The notes under the pieces are model-generated. The model had not been told where the DNA came from. It saw only the letters and a list, made by a program, of their open reading frames with translations, and made no database searches. Source: a phage. Taken from it: a stretch of 64,000 nt of DNA. Where the stretch lies: NCBI GenBank assembly GCA_020241125.1, contig GCA_020241125.1_4708.1; one strand, given 5' to 3'. Below, piece after piece: positions 9,972-34,856 of this stretch (within the stretch, counting starts at the first letter, position 1; the number at the start of each line of letters is the position of its first letter). The translations under genes and the position numbers were made by a program.

Positions 9972-9985
9972 GACCGCAAATATAC

Positions 9986-13989: not shown

Positions 13990-14013
13990 GGGAGGGAGGT
14001 TGCCCTCCCTCCC
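13990..14013 (-). terminator. stem-loop, terminator or processing site
   Basis: 10 bp perfect stem GGGAGGGAGG / CCTCCCTCCC with 4 nt loop, between the 631 aa gene stop and the beta-prime gene RBS. Confidence 0.5.
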
Positions 14014-14039
14014 GTCAGATTACATCGAACGTTCTTCCA

Positions 14040-15935
14040 TTAGAACAGGTTGAATGCCCCACCCATGTTGTTAACGCCAACATTCGGACGATCGCTACGT
14101 GCGTAGATGTTACCGGAGATGTTACCCAGACCACGAGCACGTGCTGCCATGTTACCACGAACAGCGGTACCTGCCAGATGCTGGATGTTCTCAGGACGGA
14201 TGGTGAAGCCAGCATCAGCAGCGGCCTCGATCAGCGCCTGCAGTGCTAACGGATCGAAGTCGTAACGCATTGCCCAGCCGGTTTGTTCCCAGCTACCAGA
14301 CAGAACACGATCAATGATTTCGTGACGAGCGACAACACGCTGAGACATCGTCATATCGGTACGGTCGAAGCTGTCTTCCCAAGCTTCTACGGTATCCGGG
14401 TTAGTGATGTTCATCATGTACAGATCGTCCATATCACGAATATCGTGACGGTGACCATCCTGGTGGTTATAATGACCCAGCGGGATACGGTTACCGGTAG
14501 CGTAGACCAGTGGTGCGCCGTACTGATATTTCTTGCTGAAGCAACCCAGGGTAGTATCATCGAAGGCACGGAAGAGTGCTTTGTAACCTTCGGAGATTTC
14601 CCGGACTTCACCTTCAACTTTGCCCGTATAGATCTTCTCAGCCGCCGGGATCATACGCAGCAGCCAGCTGTATTCGCCTTCTTCCGGTACGTCGATAGAA
14701 ATCAGCAGAGACGGATACAGTACCTGTTGCAGGAACTTGTAAATCTGCTCGTTGGTTTGAGTAGACAGATCCAGCGGTGCGGTAACTTCCGGATCCAGTA
14801 CCATCGCCAGAGCACCCGGGTTATGCGGACCAATACCACGAGCAGCGTTGCTGATTAAAGACTGTGCCCACGCCATACCGCTGTTCAGCGTAGCGATGGT
14901 GCCAATCAGACCCAACACGAAAGTGTTCGGCGTGAACGCATCCAGCTCCAGCGGGTAAGCGCTGGTCATCACGTAACGCGGTTGGTATTGTACAGTCGGC
15001 GGTACCGGATAACCGTTAACCAGAACAGGGCCTTGGTTGAAGGTCGGGTTCTGCGGGCTGTAGGTCAGGTCAATGTAACCGGTGGTTGCGACCAGACGCT
15101 GCTGACTATCGTAATCGCTCATCGCTTGACGGATGCGGTTAGAGATAGTTACAGTGATGTCAGAACGCACAGGGTTACCAACAATATCGCTGTCCTGCAT
15201 ACCGCTGGTGTTGTACTGAACGCTGCTGATTGGCTGATCGCTTGCCATCATGCCCAGGTTGAACTGCGGCAGACCCAGTTTATCGCCGAGACGGATTTCG
15301 ATCGCGGTTTGGATTGCGTTATCTGCAGCAGACAGCAGGGTGGTTGCCAGATGCGCAGATTCAGCGGTGATTTCATTGGTCACCACAGCCAGACCAGCGA
15401 TACGAGCAGTACCATTAGACTTACCACCGATAGCTGCATACATTGCCGCCATGACTTCGTTGATGAACGTACCGTTCAGGTTATCAACCCAGGTACGCGG
15501 CACCAGAATGTTACCATGCGGGCCTTGTTCTTCACGACGCGGCAGCGGAGCCAAACCGGCAACCAGTGGAAGCACATAACCGAAGAAGTGGTTATGGTCA
15601 CCAACTTTTGCACCGCTCATAACAACCAGGGTCGGATACGGTACACTGTATTGGTTAGGATCGACGGTCACCATGATGAAGTCGTCTTTGAATCCTTTAT
15701 CTTCCAGTTCTTTTTCCATCAGACGACGGAGATTCAGTACCTGCTCGGAGCCAGTATTACGGCTAATACGACGGCTCAGTGTACGGTTGATCGTACGCAT
15801 CGTATGAGTTACTTTAGGCTGGCCAGCAAAATCTGCAGCGGTTTCCAGCGCCTCATCAGCACGTTGTGCGGTGCGGGTTTCAGCTGCACGAATTTCTACA
15901 TTATCGTTACCGTTATTACGTACGTCTAAGCCCAT
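14040..15935 (-). CDS. hypothetical protein; candidate phage-nucleus shell protein (chimallin-like)
   Basis: 631 aa; AGAGGA RBS; early-promoter-like motif C upstream; sits directly upstream of the beta-prime gene, the arrangement recalled for phiKZ gp54-gp55. No sequence motif verified. Confidence 0.4.
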   Translation of the reverse strand: MGLDVRNNGNDNVEIRAAETRTAQRADEALETAADFAGQPKVTHTMRTINRTLSRRISRNTGSEQVLNLRRLMEKELEDKGFKDDFIMVTVDPNQYSVPYPTLVVMSGAKVGDHNHFFGYVLPLVAGLAPLPRREEQGPHGNILVPRTWVDNLNGTFINEVMAAMYAAIGGKSNGTARIAGLAVVTNEITAESAHLATTLLSAADNAIQTAIEIRLGDKLGLPQFNLGMMASDQPISSVQYNTSGMQDSDIVGNPVRSDITVTISNRIRQAMSDYDSQQRLVATTGYIDLTYSPQNPTFNQGPVLVNGYPVPPTVQYQPRYVMTSAYPLELDAFTPNTFVLGLIGTIATLNSGMAWAQSLISNAARGIGPHNPGALAMVLDPEVTAPLDLSTQTNEQIYKFLQQVLYPSLLISIDVPEEGEYSWLLRMIPAAEKIYTGKVEGEVREISEGYKALFRAFDDTTLGCFSKKYQYGAPLVYATGNRIPLGHYNHQDGHRHDIRDMDDLYMMNITNPDTVEAWEDSFDRTDMTMSQRVVARHEIIDRVLSGSWEQTGWAMRYDFDPLALQALIEAAADAGFTIRPENIQHLAGTAVRGNMAARARGLGNISGNIYARSDRPNVGVNNMGGAFNLF

Positions 15936-16000
15936 TTGGGATTCCTCTTTTCTTAAACTTTATTAAATGACGTCATTGAATCAGCTTCTACTCGCTCATT

Positions 16001-16045
16001 CACCTAGGTAATATAACCCTGAAATTTTTTTCAATATTGGTGTAA
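16001..16045 (-). promoter_or_regulatory. early-promoter-like motif, copy C
   Basis: Plus-strand CACCTAGGTAATATAACCCTGAAATTTTTTTCAATATTGG; minus-strand TATATTACC about 70 nt upstream of the 15935 start. Confidence 0.5.
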
Positions 16046-16189
16046 CCACATTGAACGATATAAACCCCTAGGCGAACGCTGCCGAGAAGCAACATTCTTT
16101 CTACATATAATCAGGATATGTCTGTAAACTTTTACTTCTCTTATTGAGAGTAATGTCATATCCGTTTACCATCTTCTTACGGAGTTCGT

Positions 16190-17284
16190 ATGTTTCGTGT
16201 TTTAAATAACCTCCCGCGAACATCATCGGGTGTGCAACCCGTCCCTCAGAAAGACTATCTAATACGCGAAGTTCAAAGAAACCTACAGACAATCCAGAAC
16301 CACTATCAAGGTTTTACCTTCGCGGTTCAGAGCGATCACATCCTTGCGTTGCTGCTCGCACAGCTCCCTATGAGATACGACATCTCAGTACAAACTTACT
16401 ACGACATGATTCTCGATCTTACTCCAGAATTGGGTAATCGTGTTAAGTTGACAACATCAAGATACGCGGGTAAGTTATTCGACGGTGCTTTCTATCCGGG
16501 ATTGCACGAAGCTATTATCGCAACCGGTGAAAGTCGTCTTATTTCACGTGACGTTCTTGACAACTGGCGTAATTGGTCACCGGTTAGAATCGTGACGCAC
16601 CCATACGCAAATCTTCGTTACATTCCTCTTCACCGAAAGCCGGTTGAAGAAGGACGAGGTTTTGCGGTCATTATGGTTGATGTACCTTTATTAGCGCTAC
16701 AGTATCGAATGTGGTCTTTGGTCATGGGTCATAACGTCGACGGCAAATGGGTGGTTAAAGAACCGGTTACAAGCTTCCTTGCGAGTTTTCCGTTGGTTAA
16801 CGCATTATACTCACACAACGATGTTGTTATACGCAATCGTTGTTTGTGGGTATCTCCGGCTAAGAATCCACTCAAATCACCAATTTACGTTAACGACCTT
16901 GATAACGTATTCAGTCAAGTCGTTCTGTCCGTACAGCATCATTTATTACGAAGAAGACGAAGCTACACCGACATGCTTAAACAGATACCGAGTTTATACG
17001 GGGATCAGTACCAAGCAACCCGAATGGGTTACACCGTCGATCTTCGGCAAACGCGATGGGCAAGGGATCTGGGTTGTCTGTCATTATGGCAACAACTCGT
17101 CACGTTGCAAAACGTATCTGAAAGCGTCGGGTTCAGCAGTCAAATCGATAATGACCTGTACCGTGCTGCCGACCGGAGTCTAAAAGAAGGTAACTGGGAG
17201 TCCTCTCCGTTACCTGGCGATTTAAGACGTGAAGTTATCGCACAGGTTGCCGACCTCTTAAAAATTCTTCCCGCTGGTGCATAA
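16190..17284 (+). CDS. hypothetical protein
   Basis: 364 aa ORF; ACGGAG RBS; followed by hairpin 17305-17334. Confidence 0.55.
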   Translation: MFRVLNNLPRTSSGVQPVPQKDYLIREVQRNLQTIQNHYQGFTFAVQSDHILALLLAQLPMRYDISVQTYYDMILDLTPELGNRVKLTTSRYAGKLFDGAFYPGLHEAIIATGESRLISRDVLDNWRNWSPVRIVTHPYANLRYIPLHRKPVEEGRGFAVIMVDVPLLALQYRMWSLVMGHNVDGKWVVKEPVTSFLASFPLVNALYSHNDVVIRNRCLWVSPAKNPLKSPIYVNDLDNVFSQVVLSVQHHLLRRRRSYTDMLKQIPSLYGDQYQATRMGYTVDLRQTRWARDLGCLSLWQQLVTLQNVSESVGFSSQIDNDLYRAADRSLKEGNWESSPLPGDLRREVIAQVADLLKILPAGA

Positions 17285-17304
17285 TAACCTCCCTCCTCCC
17301 TTGC

Positions 17305-17334
17305 ATCCTCCCAACCCGTAAGGGAAGGGAGGAT
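17305..17334. terminator. bidirectional stem-loop terminator between convergent genes
   Basis: ATCCTCCC / GGGAGGAT 8 bp stem enclosing inner CCC-GTAA-GGG; pyrimidine run upstream. Confidence 0.5.
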
Positions 17335-17350
17335 GGGGTGGTGGGTTATG

Positions 17351-19504
17351 TTACTCTGCGGTTTCTTGCTTCGGTAAATAACTTGCTGCGATGTCTTGGG
17401 CTAACAATGTATTGTTTTTATTCGAGATGAAAATACCATAACTTTCCATTAACGCGTAATACGAACGCACGAGCGTAGAGATCAATCGACGAATATCCAT
17501 ACCTTGAATAAAGATATCAGGAAGCCCGGAGGCTTCGATCACCGGTAATGGTATCGTTAAGTTGCTTATCGTTTTCTTATCGTTACGTACAATCCAATCA
17601 CGGAAACGTTGTTGTAACCCTTTATCCTCCCAGGAATCAATCCAATCGTTAAGAAGCGTTTTGTTCTTCGTCGCCAACGGCACACGAACCCCAACATAGG
17701 GTGGTTCCTGGCAATGGCCGTACGATTGAGCAAACACCTCTTCCCACATATCGTAAGACTGTTTCGTTACTGCAACATGCGGTTTCACTTTAACACGTGT
17801 TAAGAAATCAGGATCACCACGTTTCATGGACTCAACGATTTCGTTTTCTAACGAGATAATATCGTCAAGAACCAATCGAATGCTGATCTTCTCGTTACGT
17901 AACAGCTTATCCATGATACCACACATCATGCGTTCAACACGTTTGACGATCATTTTTGGTGCTGACGCATCGCGCATAACCGGACCTTTCAATTCCAGCT
18001 TCGGTGGATTGATAGGAACCCCTTCACGCATGGTCATGTAACCGTAATAGTTTTTACCCATCGAGGTTAACGACAGAATCAAGAACATATATTCGTTCTT
18101 CATTTCCATCACGTACATATGCTCTTTCGCCACACCGATATTACCAGAACACATCGCCATCAGATGAACCGTAATCTGCGTAACCAGATAGATAAGCGTG
18201 TTTGCTAAGCGCGTCGAAACTGGATTGATCTCCATATTTCCAAATCGCCACTGAACCCACTCCTGGCAGGTAAACACCGTCGAGTCGGTATCAGACAACA
18301 CACCCACTTCACGGATTGCTGATGGGAAAGCATAAACACCAGCCGGTTGGTTCTCGGTACGCCAGAACGCCATAATCAAATCAGCATAGCTTTGAATACG
18401 CTGTAGCATTAATTTTGTCGTTGCTGCAGTAAGACGATAACCAAGCTCATTTCCTTTTTCTAGCGCTACGTAAATCGCTTCCCCATTCAAGAACTCCGTA
18501 CATTGTGCTGTAATCCAAGCGACCGTGTTGTTATCCATGGAAGCAATAATGGCTTTAGCCTCTTCCATCGTTTCAACAGGTTCGGATGCCAGCTCGCATA
18601 ACGAATCAAGAAAATCTCGAACAAATTCAGGATTAAGCTCACGTAACGAGTACAGGTTATTGCTATACATGTAGCAGGCGCGTTCCAGTGGGGTTAAACC
18701 GGTAATTAACTCCCGGATAGTCAGTTCTTTCTCTGGGTCGAAAGTATATCGATGCAAGCATTTCGATACGTTAGCCCAAACCTCTTCCGGCGTAGGGTAA
18801 TGTAGTTTGTATTTTACCATTACCTGTTCAATGGCTTTACGATCGCTGTTGCGGACAATACTCACGATGTTTTCAATTGCGATATCACAATCGTAATAAT
18901 GGAAATTGCCCGCAAGGAAGCGTTCGTTGTTCGCATTGGCTGAACCTGAAGCACAGCGACACGTTGTCGTTAAACTTGGATGCGCAATTGGATTATAAAA
19001 AGGGTTAAACTTGGACGCCTGGGTTCCTGACAAACTGTTGTTATCTAACTTGGTGTTGGTTTGTCGTTTATCGTGTAACTCAGCTTCATCTTTACGTCCG
19101 TGTGCTTGCGCTATCGACATTTGTTTCTTTTGTTTCTTACGCAACTTACCGTTTTCAACCGCAAAGTCGCTTAGCACACTGGAACGTGTTTCACGTGGAT
19201 AACAGTTAGCCCACACCGGCGTGATAATTAAATTATTTTCTTTAATATCATTGAAGTATTGGCTGAACTTGATGACTTCTTTTTCTCGATTTCCTTCGGT
19301 GCGCTGTGTTAATACAAGGCAGTCGGGATCAACCATCCCGTATTTTCCACCAGGACGAACCGTATCAAGGACAAACTGCAACGCTTCCTGCTGTGATATC
19401 CCACGCATGCGCATTAAGAACAGGGTATAATCCTGTACCGCTTCTTTGGTCATATCCAACGTACGGCCATATCCGTTTTCATCGTAAAAGAACGGATTTT
19501 CCAT
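17351..19504 (-). CDS. hypothetical protein; candidate divergent family-B DNA polymerase palm domain
   Basis: 717 aa; LSDTDSTVF (motif C-like YGDTDS), YSNNLYS about 120 aa upstream (motif B-like NSLYG), DNNSLSG further upstream (weak motif A-like); GGAGG RBS. Confidence 0.45.
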   Translation of the reverse strand: MENPFFYDENGYGRTLDMTKEAVQDYTLFLMRMRGISQQEALQFVLDTVRPGGKYGMVDPDCLVLTQRTEGNREKEVIKFSQYFNDIKENNLIITPVWANCYPRETRSSVLSDFAVENGKLRKKQKKQMSIAQAHGRKDEAELHDKRQTNTKLDNNSLSGTQASKFNPFYNPIAHPSLTTTCRCASGSANANNERFLAGNFHYYDCDIAIENIVSIVRNSDRKAIEQVMVKYKLHYPTPEEVWANVSKCLHRYTFDPEKELTIRELITGLTPLERACYMYSNNLYSLRELNPEFVRDFLDSLCELASEPVETMEEAKAIIASMDNNTVAWITAQCTEFLNGEAIYVALEKGNELGYRLTAATTKLMLQRIQSYADLIMAFWRTENQPAGVYAFPSAIREVGVLSDTDSTVFTCQEWVQWRFGNMEINPVSTRLANTLIYLVTQITVHLMAMCSGNIGVAKEHMYVMEMKNEYMFLILSLTSMGKNYYGYMTMREGVPINPPKLELKGPVMRDASAPKMIVKRVERMMCGIMDKLLRNEKISIRLVLDDIISLENEIVESMKRGDPDFLTRVKVKPHVAVTKQSYDMWEEVFAQSYGHCQEPPYVGVRVPLATKNKTLLNDWIDSWEDKGLQQRFRDWIVRNDKKTISNLTIPLPVIEASGLPDIFIQGMDIRRLISTLVRSYYALMESYGIFISNKNNTLLAQDIAASYLPKQETAE

Positions 19505-19562
19505 AAATCCTCCAAAAGTTATTTAGTCTGTCTACATCATCTCGTATATCTGTTAAAAAAGA

Positions 19563-19578
19563 AGGACGGCATAAAAAA
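19563..19578 (-). promoter_or_regulatory. TATGCCG element downstream of terminator
   Basis: Minus-strand CTTTTTTATGCCGTCC about 55 nt upstream of the 19504 ATG. Confidence 0.3.
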
Positions 19579-19607
19579 GAACCGATCCAGCCGAAGCCAG
19601 ATCGGTT
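19579..19607 (-). terminator. intrinsic terminator with UUCG tetraloop
   Basis: Minus-strand AACCGAUCUGGC-UUCG-GCUGGAUCGGUU (12 bp incl. 2 G-U pairs) then CUUUUUU. Confidence 0.6.
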
Positions 19608-19643
19608 AAAAAGGATAATAACTGACAGAAAGATATCGATGAT

Positions 19644-19745
19644 GTTCGTGAAACAAGATCTTCTCTCGTGTACAATGATGCTAGATCAGAGGGAGGTTGT
19701 AACACGAGAGGTGGTCCGCCAAAGAAGGAATAAAAAACACGAACC
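19644..19745 (-). ncRNA. structured intergenic RNA element of unknown function
   Basis: Nested inverted repeats: outer GTTCGTG / CACGAAC (19644-19650 with 19739-19745), inner CTCTCGTGT / ACACGAGAG (19664-19672 with 19703-19711) around a 30 nt loop whose minus-strand RNA contains CCUCCCUC. Confidence 0.3.
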
Positions 19746-19803
19746 TATCTTATTTCACTGATGGCACTAACCACTCAAAATATATAGTACCGTATGTAAA
19801 AGT

Positions 19804-20217
19804 TTACTGATTAATCAAGTCGTTAGCAACAATCTTGGTGTAACCCGCCTGATTAAGAATTTGATTAATTTTCGTCACGTCGGTCGCATCCTCAATAACG
19901 ATGCTGGGTTTATAGATCAGCGTCTTGGTAACGACGATTGTACTCTCCTTAATCCAAGGAATCCCTAGAATCACATACTCACCATCGGCTGTAATGACCT
20001 CGACGTAATTGTATTTCGTCGGATCGTTCGGTACACTAGACGGGAGCCGGGAATAAATCTGTTGGTGAATGGCGTCTACATCACGACCGTTACGTACAGC
20101 TGTGCGATAATTGTACACAGCGCTAATTTCTACTCCGTTGAAGTTAACCCCAAGTTCTGGGGCGTACACATCAAAACTCACAACAGAGCCAATCTTTTCT
20201 AAATCAGAAGCTGGCAT
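19804..20217 (-). CDS. hypothetical protein
   Basis: 137 aa track ORF. Confidence 0.5.
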   Translation of the reverse strand: MPASDLEKIGSVVSFDVYAPELGVNFNGVEISAVYNYRTAVRNGRDVDAIHQQIYSRLPSSVPNDPTKYNYVEVITADGEYVILGIPWIKESTIVVTKTLIYKPSIVIEDATDVTKINQILNQAGYTKIVANDLINQ

Positions 20218-20749
20218 AATAGCATCCTTTATTTAAAATGTATTCATATCCGAAAGTCGTCGCTGACCAGACCCGGATAGATGATAGTGTTCCGCCACGA
20301 TAAAACGTTTTTGTGAATTCCATATCCTGGACAACACGATAATAAACACGTCCGATAATACGCACGATAAGGTTTCGTGATAACGATCTCTCCTCGCAGT
20401 ATTCATCGATAAAGTCATCGTCGATATCCGATAAGACAACATCCGCAATTTCTTGCAGTAGATTCCTCATCAGCATCTGCCTTCCTTCGGTACCCCACCC
20501 AGACAAACAGTAATCGTCTTCTGCCTGACTATAGATGTCGTTAACCGCCTGTTCGAGCAGTTGCTCAAGATAGTAGTCATCGCGTTTTATAACGTGGCGA
20601 CGGCGCTCAGTGGCGTATTTTTCCATCCTGTGTTTCTCTTGTTCGGCGTATGTATTAACGACGCCACAGTCTTTTCTGGATCGTCCCACAATGCGCGACG
20701 AAAACTGGATACTACCATAACGGTAGGATAGATTTGTACAACCTCCCAT
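20204..20749 (-). CDS. hypothetical protein, start uncertain
   Basis: 181 aa track ORF; N-terminal part overlaps the upstream ORF in another frame, so an internal start is likely. Confidence 0.4.
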   Translation of the reverse strand: MGGCTNLSYRYGSIQFSSRIVGRSRKDCGVVNTYAEQEKHRMEKYATERRRHVIKRDDYYLEQLLEQAVNDIYSQAEDDYCLSGWGTEGRQMLMRNLLQEIADVVLSDIDDDFIDEYCEERSLSRNLIVRIIGRVYYRVVQDMEFTKTFYRGGTLSSIRVWSATTFGYEYILNKGCYYASF

Positions 20750-21075
20750 CCGTAACGATGTGCGTTAGTCGTACGTCCGACATTGAACAGACATAACTGA
20801 TTTAAGAAACAGAGCTGCATCTTCGTAAACAACACCATATCTTCACGTTTAACGTATCCGAGGATATATGCATTCTCGAACGCCTCGCGTGACAAGACGG
20901 GACGATTAAGATACCGTAACGCTAATACCAACAACGTTGTTATGCGCAACGGATCTTCTGGGTCATTCATGGTGCTCAGCTCTGCTTGTAACCAGTCAGG
21001 GATAGTAACCGTCAGACGATAGGTATCTGTTCCACGATCAACCACATTCAATGTTGAAAAAGGCAACATATCCAT
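20587..21075 (-). CDS. hypothetical protein
   Basis: 162 aa track ORF. Confidence 0.45.
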   Translation of the reverse strand: MDMLPFSTLNVVDRGTDTYRLTVTIPDWLQAELSTMNDPEDPLRITTLLVLALRYLNRPVLSREAFENAYILGYVKREDMVLFTKMQLCFLNQLCLFNVGRTTNAHRYGWEVVQIYPTVMVVSSFRRALWDDPEKTVASLIHTPNKRNTGWKNTPLSAVATL

Positions 21076-23189: not shown

Positions 23190-23280
23190 ACTCTTTTCCT
23201 AAGTCCCCATTGTTTATACACACGATATCTGGGAATAGTTAAAATATACGGCGTAAAACGAAGCAGGAGAGTTTCTGACG

Positions 23281-23601: not shown

Positions 23602-23610
23602 GCTTTCTCC

Positions 23611-23623
23611 TACACGGCATAAA
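23611..23623 (-). promoter_or_regulatory. TATGCCG element downstream of terminator
   Basis: Minus-strand TTTTATGCCGTG about 20 nt upstream of the 23601 ATG. Confidence 0.3.
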
Positions 23624-23645
23624 AGCCTGCCCCGAAGGACAGGCT
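23624..23645 (-). terminator. intrinsic terminator with UUCG tetraloop
   Basis: Minus-strand AGCCUGUCC-UUCG-GGGCAGGCU (9 bp incl. one G-U) followed by UUUUAUG. Confidence 0.55.
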
Positions 23646-23654
23646 CGATAGAAC

Positions 23655-23855: not shown

Positions 23856-23892
23856 AGCGCATCCCCATTCACTTGAACCTTTTGGTTCGGCA

Positions 23893-24873: not shown

Positions 24874-24937
24874 GTGAACTCCTAACTTAATATGTATTTA
24901 ACGTACAATGAATCTTTCTTTGCTAAAGGGGTGACCC

Positions 24938-25780: not shown

Positions 25781-26307
25781 TTAACGACAGCTTCCTCCCT
25801 CGGTGTTTTCGAGGGAGGTATTTGCCGTTTAAACACTTTCAGCACGTTCGCAAATTCAGCGGCAATAATACAGGCCGAGGTTGATAGCTTATTACTGAAA
25901 ATGAGATCGTCCGGTAAACAATCGAACTGAATACCGTATTGCGTCTTTGTCTCATCAACGATCAATGACGGTGTCGATCTTGTCTTCGCGATGTCGGTGA
26001 TATACAAACGTAGAAATAATTCACCGTCTTCGCTATCCATAAAACGATAGGCGTTACCAGAAAACGCAACACATGGCGTAACGATAAATTGAACACGATC
26101 GTCGGTCGGATGGATATTTAACCAACGTTCGATATCATTACTACTCACATTTCGCATATTTACTACGGTAAAAGCAAATAGCGTATCGTGATGTTTGGAA
26201 TAATGCAGCACGTACGCCGCACCTTTCTTTCTGTGAATCCCTTCAATGTATTCTATTGTCGTATAGCCGGATTTATATAGCTTTACTTGCGGTTTATCAC
26301 TCATCAT
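25771..26307 (-). CDS. hypothetical protein
   Basis: Track ORF 25771-26388; probable start at Met 28 (MMSDKPQ...) where ATG overlaps the upstream stop as ATGA. Confidence 0.5.
   Translation of the reverse strand: MMSDKPQVKLYKSGYTTIEYIEGIHRKKGAAYVLHYSKHHDTLFAFTVVNMRNVSSNDIERWLNIHPTDDRVQFIVTPCVAFSGNAYRFMDSEDGELFLRLYITDIAKTRSTPSLIVDETKTQYGIQFDCLPDDLIFSNKLSTSACIIAAEFANVLKVFKRQIPPSKTPREEAVVNQK
25794..25818 (+). terminator. intrinsic terminator
   Basis: CCTCCCTCG / CGAGGGAGG stem with 7-8 nt loop followed by TATTTGCCGTTT; overlaps the 3' end of the convergent minus-strand gene. Confidence 0.5.
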
Positions 26308-26603: not shown

Positions 26604-26615
26604 GGAAGATCCTCC

Positions 26616-26990: not shown

Positions 26991-27003
26991 GATAACCTAT
27001 TCG

Positions 27004-27828
27004 TTAACTATCGCTTTCTGACGTATCGACGTAGTTGAAAATACGATCCCGTAAACACTCGTAACGAGGCAACGCGCTAAGAATGATCATCTTCAACTGC
27101 ATCGCGATCGATACACGTTCTTCATTCGATGCATCGTCTCCCCATTTACCCGGCTTAACCTGAATGGGTTCGTGCGGATCCTGCGGGAATATAAAACTTA
27201 ACAACAGATAATCTGTGCGGAACTCCCACACTTCTCGACCGTCGTTATCGGTTTCCTTACGCAACGTGAAGAGTTGACGTTCGGTGGTTGGATCCAACAT
27301 CAGCGGTCGGCCACGAACAATCTCCAGTTTACGTGGGCTGACGAACGTCGTACGTTCAGGAAGGTATTTTTCAACATCATCCGTATCCAACAAGAACAAA
27401 ATGATGTCGTCGAAATACTTCGGTGCGTACGTGTGTATCGGTTCACCGTCGCTATACGAAGAGATCTCTTGAAGTATTGGTGTCTTACACGAAAAGTTCT
27501 GGCATGAGCCGCGGGTGATCGGTAAGGTGGTCCATTGATGTTCTGTAGACAATTCAACAGGCACTAACGGATAGTCATCAATGAAAACCACACACGTTGT
27601 ACTAATGGGTATTCTTCCATCATTACCGGGTTCAAAAACCAAACGTATCTTACCGGTAATCAACGCCATCTCATCTGGCATTAAATGGCTTGCTGAACGG
27701 GCAAGTCTGAAACCGCTCGCCTGTTTATAAGGTTCGGGTTTATAGCCACGGACAATAAGAGACACATCCGCAAGTTCAACGCTCACGAATGCATCTTTGA
27801 TGTCTTCATTGTTCGTCGTTAACGTCAT
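27004..27828 (-). CDS. hypothetical protein
   Basis: 274 aa track ORF. Confidence 0.5.
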   Translation of the reverse strand: MTLTTNNEDIKDAFVSVELADVSLIVRGYKPEPYKQASGFRLARSASHLMPDEMALITGKIRLVFEPGNDGRIPISTTCVVFIDDYPLVPVELSTEHQWTTLPITRGSCQNFSCKTPILQEISSYSDGEPIHTYAPKYFDDIILFLLDTDDVEKYLPERTTFVSPRKLEIVRGRPLMLDPTTERQLFTLRKETDNDGREVWEFRTDYLLLSFIFPQDPHEPIQVKPGKWGDDASNEERVSIAMQLKMIILSALPRYECLRDRIFNYVDTSESDS

Positions 27829-28843
27829 TGTTCATTTTCTCCATTGCAACGAATCGTTCAAGCTCGCGTAATAAACGCTCTTTTAACGCAGGATCAACTT
27901 CCGGAGCATGTTTATCACGATACCACTCTGTCCCGTTGTATTGCAGGCTAACATGCCATGTTCCTAACGGGCTTTCCTCTGCAGCGGCGATGAAATTCTT
28001 AACGCCGGTTTTGGTAGGATACTCCATGATAGGAATAGCCTGCTTCAGATCCATTACGGTAAGATCCTGGAAGTTATAATCCAGGAGCGTTAATGCACGT
28101 TTGTCGCGTAACAGTAACCCGCAATCCAAGATAGTGAAATCGATACCCCAAAATTGTAGCTTACCGCCCGTACTGATAGGAATATGACCGCGATAAACCG
28201 CGAGATAAATCTCACCTTTATCGGTTTCTTTATTGTATCCTGCGATGAATGCTGCGGTAATTAACGGCTGATCGCCTTTCGCAAAGAAAACAGGATGCGT
28301 ACGATAAAGCCAATCATTACGGATTAAATCGGATACCTGACCTAAACGTGCCGTGGGCACCATTGTCGATCCTAAGTCACTATTACTAACTTCGAATTGG
28401 TAATATTCAAACAGAACACCGTCGACTTCTTCTTTAGCGTATGGTTCACGATCCGGATTAGCGAGTATATAACGCAACTTATTATCGATTTCGGCTACGC
28501 GTTCCTCATGGGTATCCATAAGGCTAGTGACGACGAAAGCAGCCAGATTACGTACGCTAAGGAACACGTCGTCTTTCTCCTGGTCGCTTAGTCCTTCTTC
28601 ATCTGCTAGCGTTGTCCAATGCAGTGGTCCCTCCACCATTTTCAACCATTTGTCTTCACGCTCTGGGTAAACAAAGGGCTTGTGTACAGGAACGCTGGTA
28701 TGCTGCACACGCAATAGTAACGAACAAGGGGATTGCATTATCGACTCCCATGGCACTATACCACTCGTGACAGCGATGACGTGACGATTAAGAACAAGAG
28801 AAGCTGAATAAGTAATGTTATCTAATCCTGGTAATTGATCCAT
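27806..28843 (-). CDS. hypothetical protein
   Basis: 345 aa ORF; AAGGA RBS; 308 nt AT-rich region with small palindromes upstream. Confidence 0.55.
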   Translation of the reverse strand: MDQLPGLDNITYSASLVLNRHVIAVTSGIVPWESIMQSPCSLLLRVQHTSVPVHKPFVYPEREDKWLKMVEGPLHWTTLADEEGLSDQEKDDVFLSVRNLAAFVVTSLMDTHEERVAEIDNKLRYILANPDREPYAKEEVDGVLFEYYQFEVSNSDLGSTMVPTARLGQVSDLIRNDWLYRTHPVFFAKGDQPLITAAFIAGYNKETDKGEIYLAVYRGHIPISTGGKLQFWGIDFTILDCGLLLRDKRALTLLDYNFQDLTVMDLKQAIPIMEYPTKTGVKNFIAAAEESPLGTWHVSLQYNGTEWYRDKHAPEVDPALKERLLRELERFVAMEKMNNDVNDEQ

Positions 28844-29098
28844 GATAGAAATCCTTAGTATGTTTGATATGTTGTTTAATTAACATATTAAGTTTAAAAG
28901 AGGTTATGTTTTACGTATTGTTAATAACGTATTCTTATCTCTATTAAGTTATGTTCTATCTAAAGATAGTAAACAGATATAATGCTCCCCACCTCCCCAT
29001 TCTCCCAAGTAATACTGGCCTACCGGCCCTCTCCTTTTTAAGGGAGAGAGTAAGCATTCAGTATTGCTCAAATGAATAAGCAAAACAGTATAAACTTA

Positions 29099-29122
29099 CC
29101 GTCTCGAGATAACTCGAGACGG
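29099..29122 (-). terminator. stem-loop terminator
   Basis: Perfect 10 bp stem CCGTCTCGAG / CTCGAGACGG with 4 nt loop, about 30 nt after the stop of 29152-29505. Confidence 0.45.
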
Positions 29123-29151
29123 CGTAGTAGTATCTGTTTATCTCTTTTATG

Positions 29152-29505
29152 CTAACAGCCTATTTCTGCATGAACCTTTAACGATTCGAATACATCTTGC
29201 TTCTTTATCATCGTCTTGTATAAACGTGATTGAGCAATGATCTTTATCCATTGTTGTGGATCGCGTAAATTCACATTTTCAAAACGGGGTGGGGTATTAT
29301 CTCCGTCGAGTCGGATATACCCTAAGAGCAATCCTTCATGGTCTCCTCGACGGATTTCGATATGCGGTTTGAGGAAGACATGATTGTCTGGTGGATACCA
29401 GCTTACGGTGTAGTAATGGTTTCCTGAAACAACGAATTCGTGAACGGCTTTTGTCTCATCGTCAATGACCGCATTTACGCTGGGAATCATTAATTTTTGA
29501 AGCAT
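29152..29505 (-). CDS. hypothetical protein
   Basis: 117 aa track ORF. Confidence 0.5.
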   Translation of the reverse strand: MLQKLMIPSVNAVIDDETKAVHEFVVSGNHYYTVSWYPPDNHVFLKPHIEIRRGDHEGLLLGYIRLDGDNTPPRFENVNLRDPQQWIKIIAQSRLYKTMIKKQDVFESLKVHAEIGC

Positions 29506-30089
29506 GGGACATAAACCTCCATCAACATCGCATAAAGCGCACCAAGCCCATGCAGGACTTGGTTAGGTGCAAAGGTCGGAGTGTAGCATACTTGTTCGGT
29601 TGGTGCTTGTTGACGTAAGTCTAACGGATCTCCGTTGATAAGCATCTGCAGGAGATCAGCATCATCTTGCAATGTGTCTTCATCGATATACGCATCAACA
29701 CAAAGCAGTCGGTGTAACTGTTCTGGTTTAATTGAAATACCTACAACCATGCAGTTGTTGTAGGTGGCGTTGTCCAGAAAGAAGTGAATGACGCCCGCTT
29801 GAGGATCGCCACCGTAGTGGAGCCAACGCGTAAAACCAGCCGACATCATCCATAGCGGGTTGTGTTGTAACGCACTGACGACGCGGGTCTCGAAATCCAA
29901 ACCAAACTTCTGGAAGATTGCGCCCATCTGGAAACGATCTTCATCGAGACGGTAACGGAATATACAGGCATCCGATCCCGTTGAGTTATCATACACCGAA
30001 AGATACCCACGATGGATTTCCACGGTAACATTGTTGTCGTCAAGCGTGGCGCTCGCAACGCCGTTAGAAAAGGTTGGAACAAAGCTCAT
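29490..30089 (-). CDS. hypothetical protein
   Basis: 199 aa track ORF. Confidence 0.5.
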   Translation of the reverse strand: MSFVPTFSNGVASATLDDNNVTVEIHRGYLSVYDNSTGSDACIFRYRLDEDRFQMGAIFQKFGLDFETRVVSALQHNPLWMMSAGFTRWLHYGGDPQAGVIHFFLDNATYNNCMVVGISIKPEQLHRLLCVDAYIDEDTLQDDADLLQMLINGDPLDLRQQAPTEQVCYTPTFAPNQVLHGLGALYAMLMEVYVPCFKN

Positions 30090-30637
30090 CTTGTAATCCT
30101 TAATTTACCTGAATGAATTATCGTTGATGGGTCCACGACGCGACCGTATTTCGCGTTACGTAATACACGATGCCCAAAGAAGTCAGCGGTTTCCAAAACA
30201 ACCGTGTAACAACCCAGCTGATGTTGATGTCCCCAAAACCGTTCAATGGGAATCCAGCAGGGCGACATGCCTTTGTGTCGCCAATCCGTAACACAGCCGA
30301 ATTCAGCAAACTGTTCAGTAAACCACTCGTCAATGTCGGTATCCGTAAAGAGAAACACGTGGTTTTTAACCAGATAAGCGAACCCAGGATAAAAAAGCTG
30401 AGGGTCATCTGGGTCACGGAGATAAACACGAAGTTTGTCTAGCGTACCCTCGACAACGATTGTATCGGGTAATCCTGGCGGCGTGAACCGAAGTTGGAAG
30501 TTATCCTCGTTTGCCGAGGCGTTAACCAAATACCCCAGTTGAAGGGGTCGATGCAATTCGAAAAGGTTAAACGTTAATGCATATTCGATATACTCTAATC
30601 CTATATTCATGTCTGACCTATGTGGTATGGACGGCAT
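30086..30637 (-). CDS. hypothetical protein
   Basis: 183 aa track ORF; start overlaps upstream stop. Confidence 0.5.
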   Translation of the reverse strand: MPSIPHRSDMNIGLEYIEYALTFNLFELHRPLQLGYLVNASANEDNFQLRFTPPGLPDTIVVEGTLDKLRVYLRDPDDPQLFYPGFAYLVKNHVFLFTDTDIDEWFTEQFAEFGCVTDWRHKGMSPCWIPIERFWGHQHQLGCYTVVLETADFFGHRVLRNAKYGRVVDPSTIIHSGKLRITR

Positions 30638-30742
30638 TGCATTGCCTTCCGCGAGTGTAATCAGGAAGGTAATGTAGGTTTATTTTAATCTCCATTTCGC
30701 GATGATATGACAGTCTTTATTACGTTTACCATCTGAGGGAGC

Positions 30743-31987
30743 ATGCTCATGTCTTCTATTTTACAGGTGTTTAATGCGCATGCGGAAGGCATTGACATCG
30801 ACGAGTATTTTGTTAATCAGGTTATCCGTTACGCGACACGCTTCCGTACGCAAGACCAAGAACACATGCGTTTTTTCGGTGGGGTTCTGTTAGGTGTACA
30901 GAAAATCCGATTCACAACAAGACATAACGATACATGGTTTTCCGACGTCTTGATGATGGATGAAGAAAGCTTACGGCGCGATTTGAGTAAACTACCCTTC
31001 TACAATACGCAGACCAACCGTGTTGCCTCAAACGCCTTTAACCTAAGTTGCTGTTGGTTGCTTTATGCGATCTTCCACAGCAAACAAATCAAAAAAGAAA
31101 AGGTTCGTGAAGCCGGGATGCTTGCAGCAATGCAAGTCCTCCATTATAAATTCATTTGCGGTCTGGTAGCACGACGTTATCCTTATAACGCCGATCCGGC
31201 TATCGCCATTAAGGCGTACGATGAGTTAACCCTCAAATCAGGCATCAAGCGCATGAATAGCTGGAATGAGTACATCGACGAACGCTGTAACGCCATCATT
31301 GCGCGCAATAGCACGCATCTCAGTCGCTGGTCAACCCTGGAACCAGATAGTGTCGCCGAACGTTTTGTGCGTGATGTGAATACCGGAATCCGTAAGGTTA
31401 TCAACCGTATCACCGATACGTACTATGCGATGTATGAAGAGGGTAAGAAGATAGGCACGTCCTCTCAAACTGTAGAATTAGACGACGGCCTCGCTGTTCG
31501 CGATATCAAACGCAACGAAACCACTTATCGTCAATATCTGTTCGAAATCGCTTATGACCGAACAAGTTTCGTTAAACGTGAACTCATGGTCGTCATCCTC
31601 GACGTGCATCATACTACCAATCTTTTATCCCTTGAGCGAGCGTTAAGCTATATCAGCGCTAACGTAGAACGACCGACAAGAGACGGAAAACAGGTCTCTC
31701 AGATGTTGCGGCTTGTAATGGAGCATGCTATCGAGTATATCATCTTGAATAAGGTCGATATGCGCGATCTTACGTTCTTATTCTACATGCGTAACGTGTA
31801 CACGTCCAACCGTACCAGCAACCCGAAACTGTTAGAACTGCGTAAACTTGGCTCTGAAGTCATTAAGAAAGCAACCAACGCGAGAAACGACGCTGAAGCT
31901 GCAGCGACACGTACCGGTGTCTTTCTGTATATCCTGCTTCGTGTGTTTAGCCGTAACTATTACGTTCGACGTGCGATGTCACGTTAA
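30743..31987 (+). CDS. hypothetical protein
   Basis: 414 aa ORF; GAGGGA upstream (start may be the second ATG at 30749). Confidence 0.55.
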   Translation: MLMSSILQVFNAHAEGIDIDEYFVNQVIRYATRFRTQDQEHMRFFGGVLLGVQKIRFTTRHNDTWFSDVLMMDEESLRRDLSKLPFYNTQTNRVASNAFNLSCCWLLYAIFHSKQIKKEKVREAGMLAAMQVLHYKFICGLVARRYPYNADPAIAIKAYDELTLKSGIKRMNSWNEYIDERCNAIIARNSTHLSRWSTLEPDSVAERFVRDVNTGIRKVINRITDTYYAMYEEGKKIGTSSQTVELDDGLAVRDIKRNETTYRQYLFEIAYDRTSFVKRELMVVILDVHHTTNLLSLERALSYISANVERPTRDGKQVSQMLRLVMEHAIEYIILNKVDMRDLTFLFYMRNVYTSNRTSNPKLLELRKLGSEVIKKATNARNDAEAAATRTGVFLYILLRVFSRNYYVRRAMSR

Positions 31988-32139
31988 CAATGTAACGGTA
32001 AAACTTTACTGACGTTGGTTATTATTTGAAGCATAGGGCTTCACCCAGGAGTACCATCCCTTTAAGTCGTTTGTCCTCTCCTGGTTAACTGTCGTTCTCT
32101 CACAGTGCTCGACAGACCAAAAATGCTCAGGCCTCATAG

Positions 32140-32168
32140 CCTCCTCTGGGAATGGAACCCAGAGGAGG
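32140..32168. terminator. bidirectional stem-loop terminator between convergent genes
   Basis: Perfect 11 bp stem CCTCCTCTGGG / CCCAGAGGAGG with 7 nt loop. Confidence 0.55.
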
Positions 32169-32180
32169 ACTATGTTTGCC

Positions 32181-32489
32181 TTAAAATTCAACGCGACCTT
32201 TTGTCGTAAACAATACACCTCTTTGCCAACAGAAAAGATCCTCCGATTGAGCGCAAACACGAATACCCGCATCGAATAGATGTTTTGTTCTAGCGCTTAA
32301 ACAATCAGGATCTTCTACATACAACAGAAGACGTTGGCATTTATTTTGAATGCGTTCGACAAGGATGTTCTTATCGCTTAAAATAAAATGCGCGTTATCT
32401 GTTAAGTTATCGTCGGTTTCCAGCTGCTTGACAAGTTTGATTAAAATACGTAATTGCTCAAGTGTGTCATGATCAAGTGAATCACCCAT
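32181..32489 (-). CDS. hypothetical protein
   Basis: Track ORF 32181-32501 (TTG start); likely ATG at 32489 with GAGG upstream. Confidence 0.45.
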   Translation of the reverse strand: MGDSLDHDTLEQLRILIKLVKQLETDDNLTDNAHFILSDKNILVERIQNKCQRLLLYVEDPDCLSARTKHLFDAGIRVCAQSEDLFCWQRGVLFTTKGRVEF

Positions 32490-32536
32490 GGCGTACCTCA
32501 ACGTTATACGTCGTTTGTATTATAATACGCTATCGT

Positions 32537-32560
32537 CTCCCCGCCAGTATTAACGGGGAG
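32537..32560 (-). other. stem-loop downstream of terminase gene
   Basis: CTCCCCG / CGGGGAG stem with 10 nt loop; no clear U-tract. Confidence 0.3.
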
Positions 32561-32574
32561 TCTGCAGACTACTC

Positions 32575-34806
32575 TTAGAAAAAACCGCCCGGGCGGTATT
32601 GGCCCATCGTCATCCACGCATTACGAGAAATATTCCGTTCATTCGAAGAGCGGCTTATTTGACGATAAGTATTCGCTCGTTCCTCCCTTGCTTTCGTGAT
32701 CATCGCATCAATAGAAACAGCCGCTGAATCCTCCCCACGTATTTTTCCTTTATACGTAAGAAGCTCTGCCTCCAATCGATCCAAGATAAGGCCGTTGGTT
32801 TCGGTCTTAAGCAACTCATAGATTTCAGCAACGCGTTGACGTAGCTTCGCCTGCTGTTGGTTAAGATACGCTTCATACGGATCGATTTCACCCGTTACAG
32901 ATGCTGGTAAACGACTCATGACTTTAAGTGGATCGATACCGTAATGGATCTGTTTCTTAGCACGCTTGATGAACCACATCGCTAACATCCATGCGAACGT
33001 CATGTCATCGTGCATTCCATCCTGGTGATCGACACGCCCATCTTTGATAACCAATCCGAGGATCTCGGAACACAGCATCTTGTCACGTAACTGCCCGCGG
33101 GTTTCTACAATACCTTCCATCAAGATGTCGGAATACAACTCCATACGTTTGCGCGCATCCGTTGTGAAGCCTAAATGCCGTTTACGTTGAGCATACCAAC
33201 TTTCATCACGCATGCTCAATGGTAATTTCAGGTCTTCGAACATCGCTGGATTATCAGCATGCCTGTCTACAATCGTGTTGTATACGCGTTTGAACACGTC
33301 GATGCCCGCTTGCCGCAAGAACTCTTCAATTGCGTCTAACAGCATGATTGCACTGCTTTTACGTTCAGGAATCAACGTAACGTTCTTAAAACGCATCATG
33401 AAGTTGGCCATCCAACGAGCAAAAGAAAGCAGACTCAGTTTATTAAAACGTCCTGTCGCAACAACTTCTGCTGTTTCTACATCCACCATCACCAAACCGA
33501 TAGCGTCACGACCTATTGCATCGCTGGTGTCTAAACCAGCAACCACCTTATTGTTCTGCATGTATGTCTCGATTTTACCTCGAGGTATATACCAGTTAAT
33601 GCAGTAGCCTTCAGGTGAGATCTCGATATGGTCGATTTCACGTTGTCCCGCCATGATCATCTCAACCATCTCAGCGGTTAACGGGCTTTCTGCTGAACCG
33701 TTGGTCCAGATGTTCATGTAGTCGCGGTCTTTCTGAAGTTTATCACCTTCCGTTTCGTTCATGGTTTTTGCTAACCATTCATCACTGAAGCCCAGCTGAG
33801 CGTGGTTCCATTGTGCCCCGATCCTGACGGTTGCTTTGCTGAGCTCGCACGGCACGTTGTTCAATACCGTCTGATGCAGATGCTTTTCATTACGGCAGTC
33901 AAAGAAACTTTCAGAGAACGGCGCTGAACGCATGAAAACTTCATAAGCCCATTTGCCTTCGCGTTTATCCAATTCACCTGCTGTTGTCGTATAGATGATA
34001 CTCGTCAGGTCGCCGTTGCTTAATGCTTCATCGCGTGCCGCACCCATCGCACCGATACCAGCAGGAACAATGATTTCGATGTATTTCGTAAACGCGGTTT
34101 CGTCGCTATGGAATAGCGGGGTTGTTAGACCACGGCCGATGTTTGTTGCTTGTTTCTTATCCGAACGTGGAATCTTTACCGATAACTTGTTCTTGAAACG
34201 TGTGTAGGTTACGTTCTCTTTGTTCGATGAATCACGGCTATCCAGCGTCCAGAGATACGCAGGCAGCAGATCACGTATACTACGCACATCTTCTACTGTT
34301 TTCGTACGGGCATCACCGTCTTTTGTTAACTGAATAACCTCGGTGTTTCGACTACGAACATAGGTTAGATAGCAGAACAATCCTAACATGGTCATGGATT
34401 TACCCGTCTGACGTATCTGTATCTGATACCAGTTCGTTCGGGTAAATATTCCCCAGAGCATCGGAATGTTACCGCGGTTAGCACGGAATGAAATTTTGTT
34501 ATCACCCGCTTTAGCCGGAACACGCATCACTTCACGGAAGAAGTACCATGGATTAAGATAGCATTCCGCACTGATCATCTGAATCTGTTCTGACGTCAAA
34601 TTCGGTGCATGAGGATCAACACCAATCAATCTTGGGTTTAATAACGCCATGAAAAACGCAGAGTTTCGGACACCGAATTCACGACGATACAAGATCGCTA
34701 AATCACGCCAACTTGTGTTTGTTGTTTCCCAGTGTGGAACAGCCTGAGGAAAATAATCCCAATCTTCCTCAAACAGGATGATTTTCTTCGGATCGACAAT
34801 CGACAT
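32575..34806 (-). CDS. terL: terminase large subunit
   Basis: 743 aa; terminase-type deviant Walker A IRQTGKSMT (compare T4 gp17 SRQLGKT); C-terminal nuclease-like region with DGMHDD; GGAGGAG RBS. Confidence 0.75.
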   Translation of the reverse strand: MSIVDPKKIILFEEDWDYFPQAVPHWETTNTSWRDLAILYRREFGVRNSAFFMALLNPRLIGVDPHAPNLTSEQIQMISAECYLNPWYFFREVMRVPAKAGDNKISFRANRGNIPMLWGIFTRTNWYQIQIRQTGKSMTMLGLFCYLTYVRSRNTEVIQLTKDGDARTKTVEDVRSIRDLLPAYLWTLDSRDSSNKENVTYTRFKNKLSVKIPRSDKKQATNIGRGLTTPLFHSDETAFTKYIEIIVPAGIGAMGAARDEALSNGDLTSIIYTTTAGELDKREGKWAYEVFMRSAPFSESFFDCRNEKHLHQTVLNNVPCELSKATVRIGAQWNHAQLGFSDEWLAKTMNETEGDKLQKDRDYMNIWTNGSAESPLTAEMVEMIMAGQREIDHIEISPEGYCINWYIPRGKIETYMQNNKVVAGLDTSDAIGRDAIGLVMVDVETAEVVATGRFNKLSLLSFARWMANFMMRFKNVTLIPERKSSAIMLLDAIEEFLRQAGIDVFKRVYNTIVDRHADNPAMFEDLKLPLSMRDESWYAQRKRHLGFTTDARKRMELYSDILMEGIVETRGQLRDKMLCSEILGLVIKDGRVDHQDGMHDDMTFAWMLAMWFIKRAKKQIHYGIDPLKVMSRLPASVTGEIDPYEAYLNQQQAKLRQRVAEIYELLKTETNGLILDRLEAELLTYKGKIRGEDSAAVSIDAMITKAREERANTYRQISRSSNERNISRNAWMTMGQYRPGGFF

Positions 34807-34818
34807 ATAAACTCCTCC

Positions 34819-34845
34819 GATGGAGGGTGCCGAGCACCCTCCATC
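34819..34845 (-). other. stable hairpin immediately upstream of terminase RBS
   Basis: Perfect 11 bp stem GATGGAGGGTG / CACCCTCCATC with 5 nt loop; no U-tract; abuts GGAGGAG before the terL ATG. Confidence 0.4.
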
Positions 34846-34856
34846 GTTGTATTACC

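Follow-up and report, generated by a model that had tools for sequence, protein, structure and literature searches.

Gene-end hairpins with a conserved TTATGCYGT tail as likely transcription terminators of a Goslar-like jumbo phage

Introduction

In the jumbo phage phiKZ, ONT-cappable-seq (ONT, Oxford Nanopore Technologies) mapped 133 termination regions (Putzeys et al. 2024, PMC10914365). The intrinsic terminators predicted in phiKZ have in common the motif 5'-BCCYCCCCHWWDGGGRRGGBYTTATKYYGT-3', in which a stem-loop precedes TTAT; it was recovered from the regions flanking mapped 3' ends, and six bidirectional terminators lie between convergent genes (PMC10914365). In phage 201phi2-1, motif A (n = 59) bears, according to its authors, a strong resemblance to the phiKZ motif, and eight selected terminators halted transcription in vivo in a reporter assay, which used a plasmid in uninfected host cells, free of any phage factor (PMC11512511). 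The enzyme stopped in that assay was presumably the host polymerase. Here we describe hairpins at gene ends in a 64,000-nucleotide (nt) stretch of phage DNA (NCBI GenBank assembly GCA_020241125.1, contig GCA_020241125.1_4708.1), hereafter the window. They are of a known kind, a Goslar-type copy of the terminator already mapped in phiKZ-like jumbo phages.

A 7-kb probe from the window showed 97.8% identity to Escherichia phage vB_EcoM_Goslar (genus Goslarvirus), and the window is colinear with the Goslar coding sequences. On sequence grounds, we assign the window to an E. coli jumbo phage that resembles Goslar and forms a nucleus. Coding sequence makes up about 94% of the window, and about 6% is non-coding.

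Structure, enrichment and placement of the hairpins

All eight polypurine/polypyrimidine hairpins listed by a first-pass annotation of the window were present at the positions it gave. Folded as RNA on the transcribed strand or strands, they had free energies (dG) of -15.9 to -28.2 kcal/mol, with z-scores against dinucleotide shuffles of -4.2 to -6.9. Further members had been overlooked at 9942-9977, 29026-29051, 32537-32560, 45888-45915, 50232-50257, and 63176-63196 (Table 1). The hairpins have GC-rich stems of at least 5 bp and short loops. Hairpins were called with RNALfold, and tail sites were examined by motif-anchored folding.

The arm sequences are enriched well beyond expectation. The hexamer CCTCCC occurs 30 times in the window versus 14.0 ± 3.2 expected, a count reached by 0 of 100 shuffles. 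Strict inverted repeats, defined as perfect repeats with homopurine/homopyrimidine arms of at least 6 nt and at least 4 G/C, numbered 13 in the window, whereas local shuffling gave 2.9 on average and at most 8, and 11 of the 13 fell in non-coding DNA. Goslar holds 49 such repeats versus 10.4 in shuffled sequence. Segregated arms (RNALfold hairpins of dG <= -15 with arms at least 75% purine or pyrimidine) were found in 10/27 intergenic hairpins of the window versus 1/181 within genes, and in 33/94 versus 12/694 over the whole Goslar genome. This segregation of the arms is not a by-product of high GC content.

The pyrimidine arm usually comes first (Y>R) rather than the purine arm (R>Y), with strict counts of 10:3 for the window and 41:8 for Goslar. 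Reading either strand gives an identical order, so that one Y>R element can end both transcripts at a convergent junction. A Y>R hairpin was present at all five convergent junctions of the window (634, 17305, 25794, 32140, 43264) and at 15 of the 19 in Goslar. Purine-first hairpins outside genes occur at 13990, 34818, 50232, and 63176, in each case between same-strand genes. On the transcribed strand, the hairpins usually start 0-30 nt past a stop codon. The first-pass annotation had described its hairpins as intergenic, which is accurate except for 25794-25818, located in the last 50 nt of the open reading frame (ORF) 25771-26307(-).

Two terminator hairpins lie 150-200 nt past the nearest upstream stop codon. 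The long unannotated stretches there (19607-19803 and 45916-46067) could be 3' untranslated regions (UTRs), small genes, or small RNAs. Two structures at the DNA level were considered and rejected: H-DNA or triplex formation requires mirror repeats, and the elements are inverted repeats, while a G-quadruplex requires more G-runs than the arms hold.

A conserved tail in place of the U-tract

The observation that some of the hairpins have no U-tract was correct in the canonical sense, with a different conserved tail replacing it. Behind many of the hairpins, the transcribed strand reads (Y)TTATGCYGT. Four hairpins of the window have the exact form TTATGCCG, namely 11410 (GGGGAGGG-TTTATGCCG), 19581 (...TCTTTTTTATGCCGT), 23623 (GGCAGGCTT-TTATGCCGT), and 45888 (...ACTTTTTATGCCGT), and near-matches follow those at 634, 13990, 17305, 25794, 29099, 32140, 43264, and 44296. 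Two of the four exact cases, 19581 and 23623, are ordinary GC hairpins without purine/pyrimidine arms, and they carry the identical tail. Among the strong intergenic hairpins at 13900-33899, only 32140(+) and 19607(-) passed a test for a U-tract (at least five T in 8 nt, beginning no more than 2 nt past the stem).

The same association holds over the Goslar genome. Of its 75 TTATGYYG sites, 28 are in non-coding DNA, which makes up 7% of the genome, and a hairpin of dG <= -12 precedes 19 of these 28 sites versus 5 of the 47 within genes. Many stems run into ATAA/TTAT flanks, and the tail statistics are therefore presence/absence tests. Behind the 73 strong post-stop hairpins of Goslar, TATG was present in 52% of cases, whereas its frequency was 12% in randomly chosen intergenic windows and 7% immediately 5' to the hairpins; TATGYYG followed 26% versus 2%, and a run of five T followed only 14%. 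TATG was about equally frequent whether the next gene lay on the opposite strand (14/24) or on the same strand (23/47), indicating that the tail belongs to the end of the upstream transcript.

Correspondence with terminators of other phages

The Y>R hairpins of the window and the Goslar-type tail TTATGCYGT fit the phiKZ consensus position by position. The CCYCCCC/GGGRRGG stem-loop shared by the phiKZ and 201phi2-1 terminators was found at 634, 11410, 17305, 25794, 32140, 43264, and 45888, while the hairpins at 13990, 34818, 50232, and 63176 have the reverse arm order and fit the phiKZ motif loosely. The stem is followed by YTTAT and KYYGT, although some members have no tail. As in phiKZ and 201phi2-1, the elements are mostly intergenic and stand just after genes, bidirectional copies occur at convergent genes, and a short TTAT replaces a long U-tract. 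There are also differences from phiKZ. The present phage infects E. coli and belongs to Goslarvirus, and its shell protein shares about 25% identity with the phiKZ one. The Goslar-type stems have greater length, many of them have two tiers and a CCC-GUAA/UUAC-GGG cap, and a minority are purine-first. The phiKZ motif comes from mapped 3' ends, whereas the Goslar-type elements are known from sequence.

We also examined the regions around chmA, the nuclear shell protein gene, in phiKZ, Erwinia RAY, Klebsiella Eowyn, Ralstonia RSL2, and Xanthomonas LucasX. In these five genera, all 12 TTATGCYGT sites were directly behind a strong hairpin (dG -21 to -32), and 11 of the 12 were just downstream of a same-strand gene end in the gene tables. 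RAY and Eowyn also carry GGAGGAGG/CCUCCUCC arms. The shell proteins of these phages are only ~23-30% identical to that of the window, and the tail is thus far better conserved than the proteins. The 9-nt tail is common to six chimallivirus genera with five or six host genera, which points to a terminator code tied to the phages' own RNA polymerases and not to those of the hosts.

Canonical Rho-independent terminators likewise have a GC-rich hairpin soon after a gene, and true U-tracts are present at 9942, 19581, and 44296. Unlike those terminators, most Goslar-type elements have no U-tract of 7-9 nt, their tail is specific and contains G and C, and their arms are segregated into purines and pyrimidines.

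Structural conservation and evolution

An alignment of 17 paralogous copies gave a two-tier consensus of a lower stem, a 2x2 internal loop, and a CCC-tetraloop-GGG cap, in which pairing was kept through changes on both sides at 7 of 12 pairs. The dominant double change was C-G to U-A, which keeps pyrimidines in the 5' arm and purines in the 3' arm. Such changes may have passed through a tolerated U.G intermediate, preserving an ancestral purine/pyrimidine bias. At 9942 and 11410, where the window departs from Goslar, the change makes a U.G wobble on the transcribed minus strand and would make an A-C mismatch on the plus strand. Like the pairing kept among paralogues, this speaks for an RNA structure. 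At least eight Goslar copies are of the CCCTCYYCC-TT-CCC-TTAC-GGG-TT-GGRRGAGGG type, and the terminator set also holds unrelated stems; stem lengths are too variable for one covariance model to add evidence.

The 13990..14013 hairpin is invariant in four Goslar-like phages. A scan of IMG/VR with the shell protein returned just three Goslar-like contigs, 96-99% identical, among which the spacer between chmA and the gene for the beta' subunit of the non-virion RNA polymerase (nvRNAP) was near-invariant and hence gave no covariation signal. The centres or loops of four hairpins (43264-43300, 44296-44352, 45888-45915, and 56378-56400) are reverse-complemented between the window and Goslar, with identical outer arms. 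These small inversions within palindromes show that the elements also recombine or switch template as DNA, and that they tolerate either orientation.

Proposed function

We consider it likely that the hairpins are factor-independent terminators or 3'-end hairpins of a chimallivirus, that is, a phiKZ-like, nucleus-forming jumbo phage. The transcript would end in a GC-rich RNA stem, most often with a C/U-rich 5' arm and a G/A-rich 3' arm, followed by a short conserved (Y)UUAUGCYGU and not by a long U-tract, and the phage's own RNA polymerases would be stopped there at gene and operon ends. By homology with the mapped phiKZ sites, RNA 3' ends would form at these stems in the present phage, and the same homology suggests which polymerase is stopped. 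The termination role that the first-pass annotation had allowed for agrees with stems that lie just past stop codons, occur at every convergent junction, and match the phiKZ motif in arm and tail. A Goslar RNA-seq preprint reports separate start sites for chmA and the downstream beta' gene (10.1101/2023.09.20.558163). These starts would agree with a transcript boundary at the 13990 hairpin and give the only direct hint of termination in this phage.

Several points weigh against this interpretation. Termination at these exact sites is argued by homology. The hairpins at 2002, 32537, 34818, and 63176 have no recognisable tail, and such members may serve in stability or processing instead of termination. 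The interpretation does not account for the homopurine/homopyrimidine arms, and the ordinary GC hairpins 19581 and 23623 carry the same tail. In addition, the tail holds TATG, the core of the phiKZ nvRNAP late promoter, and a promoter role at tandem sites is possible.

For annotation of Goslar-type phages, a hairpin followed by TTATGCYGT can serve as a rule that marks the ends of transcription units, and the same rule flags likely start-codon and mini-ORF artefacts that arise from GGGAGGG-YTT-ATG. Beyond the assignment to a known kind, what these elements add is the invariance of the tail across genera and its overlap with the nvRNAP promoter core.

Alternative explanations

The overlap with the promoter core suggests a combined module at tandem junctions, in which the hairpin ends the upstream transcript and the TATG of the tail starts an nvRNAP late-type promoter with +1 at G. 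We regard such a module as possible, though clearly less probable than termination by itself. The late promoters of phiKZ have the consensus TATG with +1 at G, an element that is necessary but insufficient, and downstream sequence matters (PMC4666361), and TATG is bound in a dedicated pocket of the nvRNAP subunit gp123 (PMC12809450). The 5' UTRs implied in the window are plausible, with 17 nt and an AGGAG at 23623, ~37 nt at 11410, and ~38 nt at 13990, and the separate start reported in Goslar for the gene downstream of chmA would also fit. However, TATG is as common where the next gene lies on the opposite strand, where such a promoter would yield antisense RNA only, and the phiKZ motif itself came from the flanks of mapped 3' ends.

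A further and somewhat more doubtful proposal, not exclusive of the terminator-promoter module, is that the phage's own multisubunit RNA polymerase reads UUAUGCYGU as a sequence-specific signal to stop. The 9-nt tail has the length of the RNA-DNA hybrid, and its TATG is the late-promoter element that nvRNAP recognises on the non-template strand. The general pause consensus is G(-10)Y(-1)G(+1). The Y-G at positions 7-8 of the tail fits it, and G(-10) would in that case come from the G-rich 3' arm. If the proposal is true, a promoter-like or pause element together with a hairpin replaces the U-tract, and the purine-rich 3' arm on both strands of bidirectional sites is explained. In vitro transcription systems for phiKZ nvRNAP exist, and the stop-signal idea is directly testable.

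It is unlikely that the hairpins are an RNA signal other than termination, such as a block to 3'-exonucleases, an endonuclease site, or a binding site for a phage RNA-binding or nuclear mRNA-export factor. Conservation of both sequence and structure over the 9-nt tail, across genera with such divergent shell proteins, could reflect recognition of this kind, as could the near-identity of Goslar copies down to the internal loop and tetraloop. The tail-less members between co-oriented genes (34818, 32537) also point in this direction. In PhiPA3, the phage-nucleus RNA-binding protein ChmC gave a peak in enhanced crosslinking and immunoprecipitation sequencing (eCLIP, a form of CLIP-seq) in the unannotated spacer that separates chmA from the gene after it (PMC11077065). 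However, that study gave no binding motif, and its main enrichment was 25-30 nt downstream of start codons (PMC11077065). Moreover, the 201phi2-1 terminators were active in the plasmid reporter without any phage factor (PMC11512511).

The first-pass annotation had proposed that the hairpins act in translation, with one arm resembling a Shine-Dalgarno (SD) sequence and the other an anti-SD. Masking of the SD-like arm would then gate ribosomes or couple translation, or the arm would serve as a decoy; we find this very improbable. The resemblance is true at the sequence level: most arms contain GGAGG or GGAG because they are G-rich purine, and it would be a by-product of such homopurine arms and not a device controlling a ribosome-binding site (RBS). 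The 45888-45915 stem pairs ACCUCCUUA with UAAGGAGGU, which correspond exactly to the 3' terminus of E. coli 16S rRNA and to the SD that matches it perfectly. The AUG in the tail of this stem, 7 nt downstream, would open a 4-codon mini-ORF (AUG CCG UCA UUU UGA). A GGAGG-like arm paired with a CCUCC-like arm is also seen in hairpins that sequester an SD, such as translational operators, RNA thermometers, and coupling stems. In the elements described here, by contrast, the downstream gene does not have the paired GGAGG as its SD, and the elements also occur at convergent junctions without a downstream ORF. None of the 13 stems at tandem junctions contains a credible SD of the next gene, and when every intergenic spacer was folded, no stem with a credible downstream SD was found, setting aside the doubtful start at 11406. 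The presence of the same tail behind hairpins without purine/pyrimidine arms also disfavours a role of SD-like arms.

The start at 11406 is the apparent exception. In GGGGAGGG-TTT-ATG, the tail supplies the annotated start codon, 3-4 nt past GGGGAGGG, and an SD at such a distance is too close to work efficiently. The start is better explained by the in-frame ATG of codon 14 (at 11367, 13 codons downstream), which has a GAGGA SD and a 5-nt spacer, and the annotated 11406 start is probably a gene-caller artefact. Four annotated starts in Goslar are likewise the tail ATG 3-4 nt after a GGGAGGG arm; likely, tail-ATG starts are artefacts of gene callers that reward SD-like sequence. The Goslar cases include gp047 (49584-49772), gp111 (start 117666), and gp167 (152177-152272), and two of the ORFs have 62 and 31 amino acids (aa). 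A strong RBS had been reported next to two of the hairpins. This is right for the terL hairpin, the only one that abuts an SD: the SD of terL (GGAGGAG-UUUAU-AUG) directly adjoins the 34818 stem and would stay free, being largely unpaired in the predicted minimum free energy fold. The 13990-14013 hairpin, by contrast, lies 42 nt before the ATG, with ~30 nt between it and the AGGAG.

Least probable of all is that the elements are DNA repeats, namely cruciform palindromes or palindromes like the repetitive extragenic palindromic (REP) sequences and bacterial interspersed mosaic elements (BIMEs), spread by duplication or recombination and transcribed incidentally: like REP/BIME they are dispersed near-identical gene-end palindromes, some at convergent genes, with many ~40-nt copies in Goslar, loops that flip between close relatives, and four centres inverted as expected from recombination or template switching, but they are placed strictly at gene ends, their tail is oriented with the transcribed strand and conserved across genera, their wobble substitutions are strand-specific, unrelated stems share the tail in this phage and in other genera, and the motif coincides with mapped phiKZ RNA 3' ends.

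Annotated features and other observations

The individual hairpins and the principal genes of the window are listed in Table 1. The GenBank record of Goslar marks only part of these terminators.

Table 1 Hairpins and principal genes of the window. Y>R, pyrimidine arm first; R>Y, purine arm first; two dG values refer to the two strands.
Position	Strand	Feature	dG (kcal/mol)	Tail	Context
634..662	both	Y>R hairpin CCCTCCC...GGGAGGG	-16.8/-15.9	CATTTATACCGT on + (TTTATGCCGT in Goslar); TTATC on -	Convergent junction of 275-628(+) and 694-1974(-)
9942..9977	-	Hairpin of canonical type, GCGGTCTCTCCCTACC-UUCG-GGTGGGGAGGGGCTGC	-30.4	True U-tract (UUCUUUUUUAUUUUU)	Starts 8 nt past stop codon; sole Goslar difference is a U.G wobble on the minus strand
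11401-11409	-	Tail of the 11410 hairpin		TTTATGCCG	Annotated ATG 11406 within tail
11410-11434	-	Y>R hairpin CCCTCCCCGC-AUAAG-GCGGGGAGGG	-22.5		15 nt past stop codon
12643-13947	-	nvRNAP beta' subunit gene
13990..14013	-	R>Y hairpin GGGAGGGAGG-GCAA-CCTCCCTCCC, nested in outer stem AAGAACGTT/AACGTTCTT	-22.4; whole spacer -41	TTATACG	26 nt past chmA stop, 42 nt before nvRNAP beta' ATG
14040-15935	-	Nuclear shell protein gene chmA
17287..17350	both	Two-tier Y>R hairpin, outer CCTCCC/GGTGGG arms; core 17305-17334 ATCCTCCC-NN-CCC-GUAA/UUAC-GGG-NN-GGGAGGAT		TTATG on both sides	Convergent junction of 16190-17284(+) and DNA polymerase gene(-); member of near-identical Goslar repeat family
17351-19504	-	DNA polymerase gene
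19567..19607	-	Ordinary UUCG-loop hairpin (19581), arms not purine/pyrimidine-segregated		UCUUUUUUAUGCCGU	Terminator in Goslar record
23615..23646	-	Ordinary hairpin GAGCCTGTCC-UUCG-GGGCAGGCTT (23623)		TTATGCCGT	8 nt past stop codon; AGGAG SD of next gene outside stem; terminator in Goslar record
23893-24873	-	Tubulin PhuZ gene
25794..25818	both	Y>R hairpin CCTCCCTCG...CGAGGGAGG	-18.1/-16.8	TATTTGCCGT on +	13 nt past stop of 24938-25780(+); within 3' end of convergent ORF 25771-26307(-)
29026..29122	-	Two hairpins: first CCGTCTCGAG...CTCGAGACGG; second Y>R CTCTCTCCC...GGAGAGGG		TAAGTTTATACTGT (first)	In 308-nt spacer after 29152-29505
32140..32168	both	Y>R hairpin CCTCCTCTGGG...CCCAGAGGAGG	-21.5/-22.0; extended -34/-35	CTATG on both strands	Convergent junction of 30749-31987(+) and 32181-32489(-)
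32537..32560	-	Y>R hairpin CTCCCCG...CGGGGAG		No conserved tail	14 nt past terL stop
32575-34806	-	Large terminase gene terL
34818..34846	-	R>Y hairpin CGATGGAGGGTGC-UCG-GCACCCTCCATCG	-22.3 (z -6.9)		10 nt past stop of virion-protein gene; sole Goslar difference in loop
40259-42331	+	Tail sheath gene
43264..43300	both	Y>R hairpin CCTTCCTTCCC...GGGAAGGAAGG	-27.3/-28.2	TTTATGG on +	Convergent junction of 42347-43237(+) and 43313-43852(-)
44296..44352	-	Long hairpin (CCCCACCG.../...CGGTGGTGG)	-34.5	Ends in GGTTATGTCA, then U-tract	17 nt past stop codon
45875..45915	-	Y>R hairpin ACCTCCTTACCC-AUGU-GGGTAAGGAGGT (stem 45888-45915)	-21.8	ACUUUUUAUGCCGU
50232..50257	-	R>Y hairpin GAGCAGGGG...CCCCTGCTC		GTTTATTTCG	Begins directly after stop codon of 1448-aa RNA polymerase subunit gene; terminator in Goslar record
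63176..63196	+	R>Y hairpin AGGGCGGGA-AUC-TCCCGCCCT		CUUCUUG	10 nt past stop of 2252-aa tail-fibre gene

The window also encodes further RNA polymerase subunits. Two insertions that Goslar carries in RNA polymerase subunit genes are missing from the window (at ~12690-12698 and ~54788-54789). They correspond to 168195-169660 (~1.47 kb) and 211754-213798 (~2.05 kb) of the Goslar record, each annotated as a group I intron with an HNH/NUMOD homing-endonuclease ORF. Because the insertion is missing there, the window gene 54608-56296 is one unbroken ORF of 562 aa.

A 293-nt non-coding spacer (12350-12642, minus strand) separates the beta' gene from the next ORF. It folds at -105 kcal/mol (z -2.86) and is ~81% identical to Goslar, versus ~98% elsewhere. 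This spacer could be a structured non-coding RNA or a remnant of mobile-element activity. Rfam gave no match over the whole window at the gathering threshold, and none for 12050-12750 at E <= 1.

Sigma-70 promoters received no support, with 27 matches versus 34 ± 6 expected. The motif TATATTAC occurs four times, always in intergenic DNA and on the minus strand (5262-5269, 10544-10551, 16008-16015, and 44973-44980), 58-124 nt upstream of minus-strand genes that include chmA. Upstream of Goslar genes, the most enriched 7- or 8-mer is this same motif, which resembles the AT-rich early promoter used by the virion RNA polymerase (vRNAP) of phiKZ-like phages.

The deposited Goslar sequence opens and closes within one terminator hairpin, behind which come TTATGCCGTCAAGC and a poly-A run. 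Since the record begins and ends in one hairpin, its ends are an arbitrary cut with a short duplicated stretch and not physical termini.

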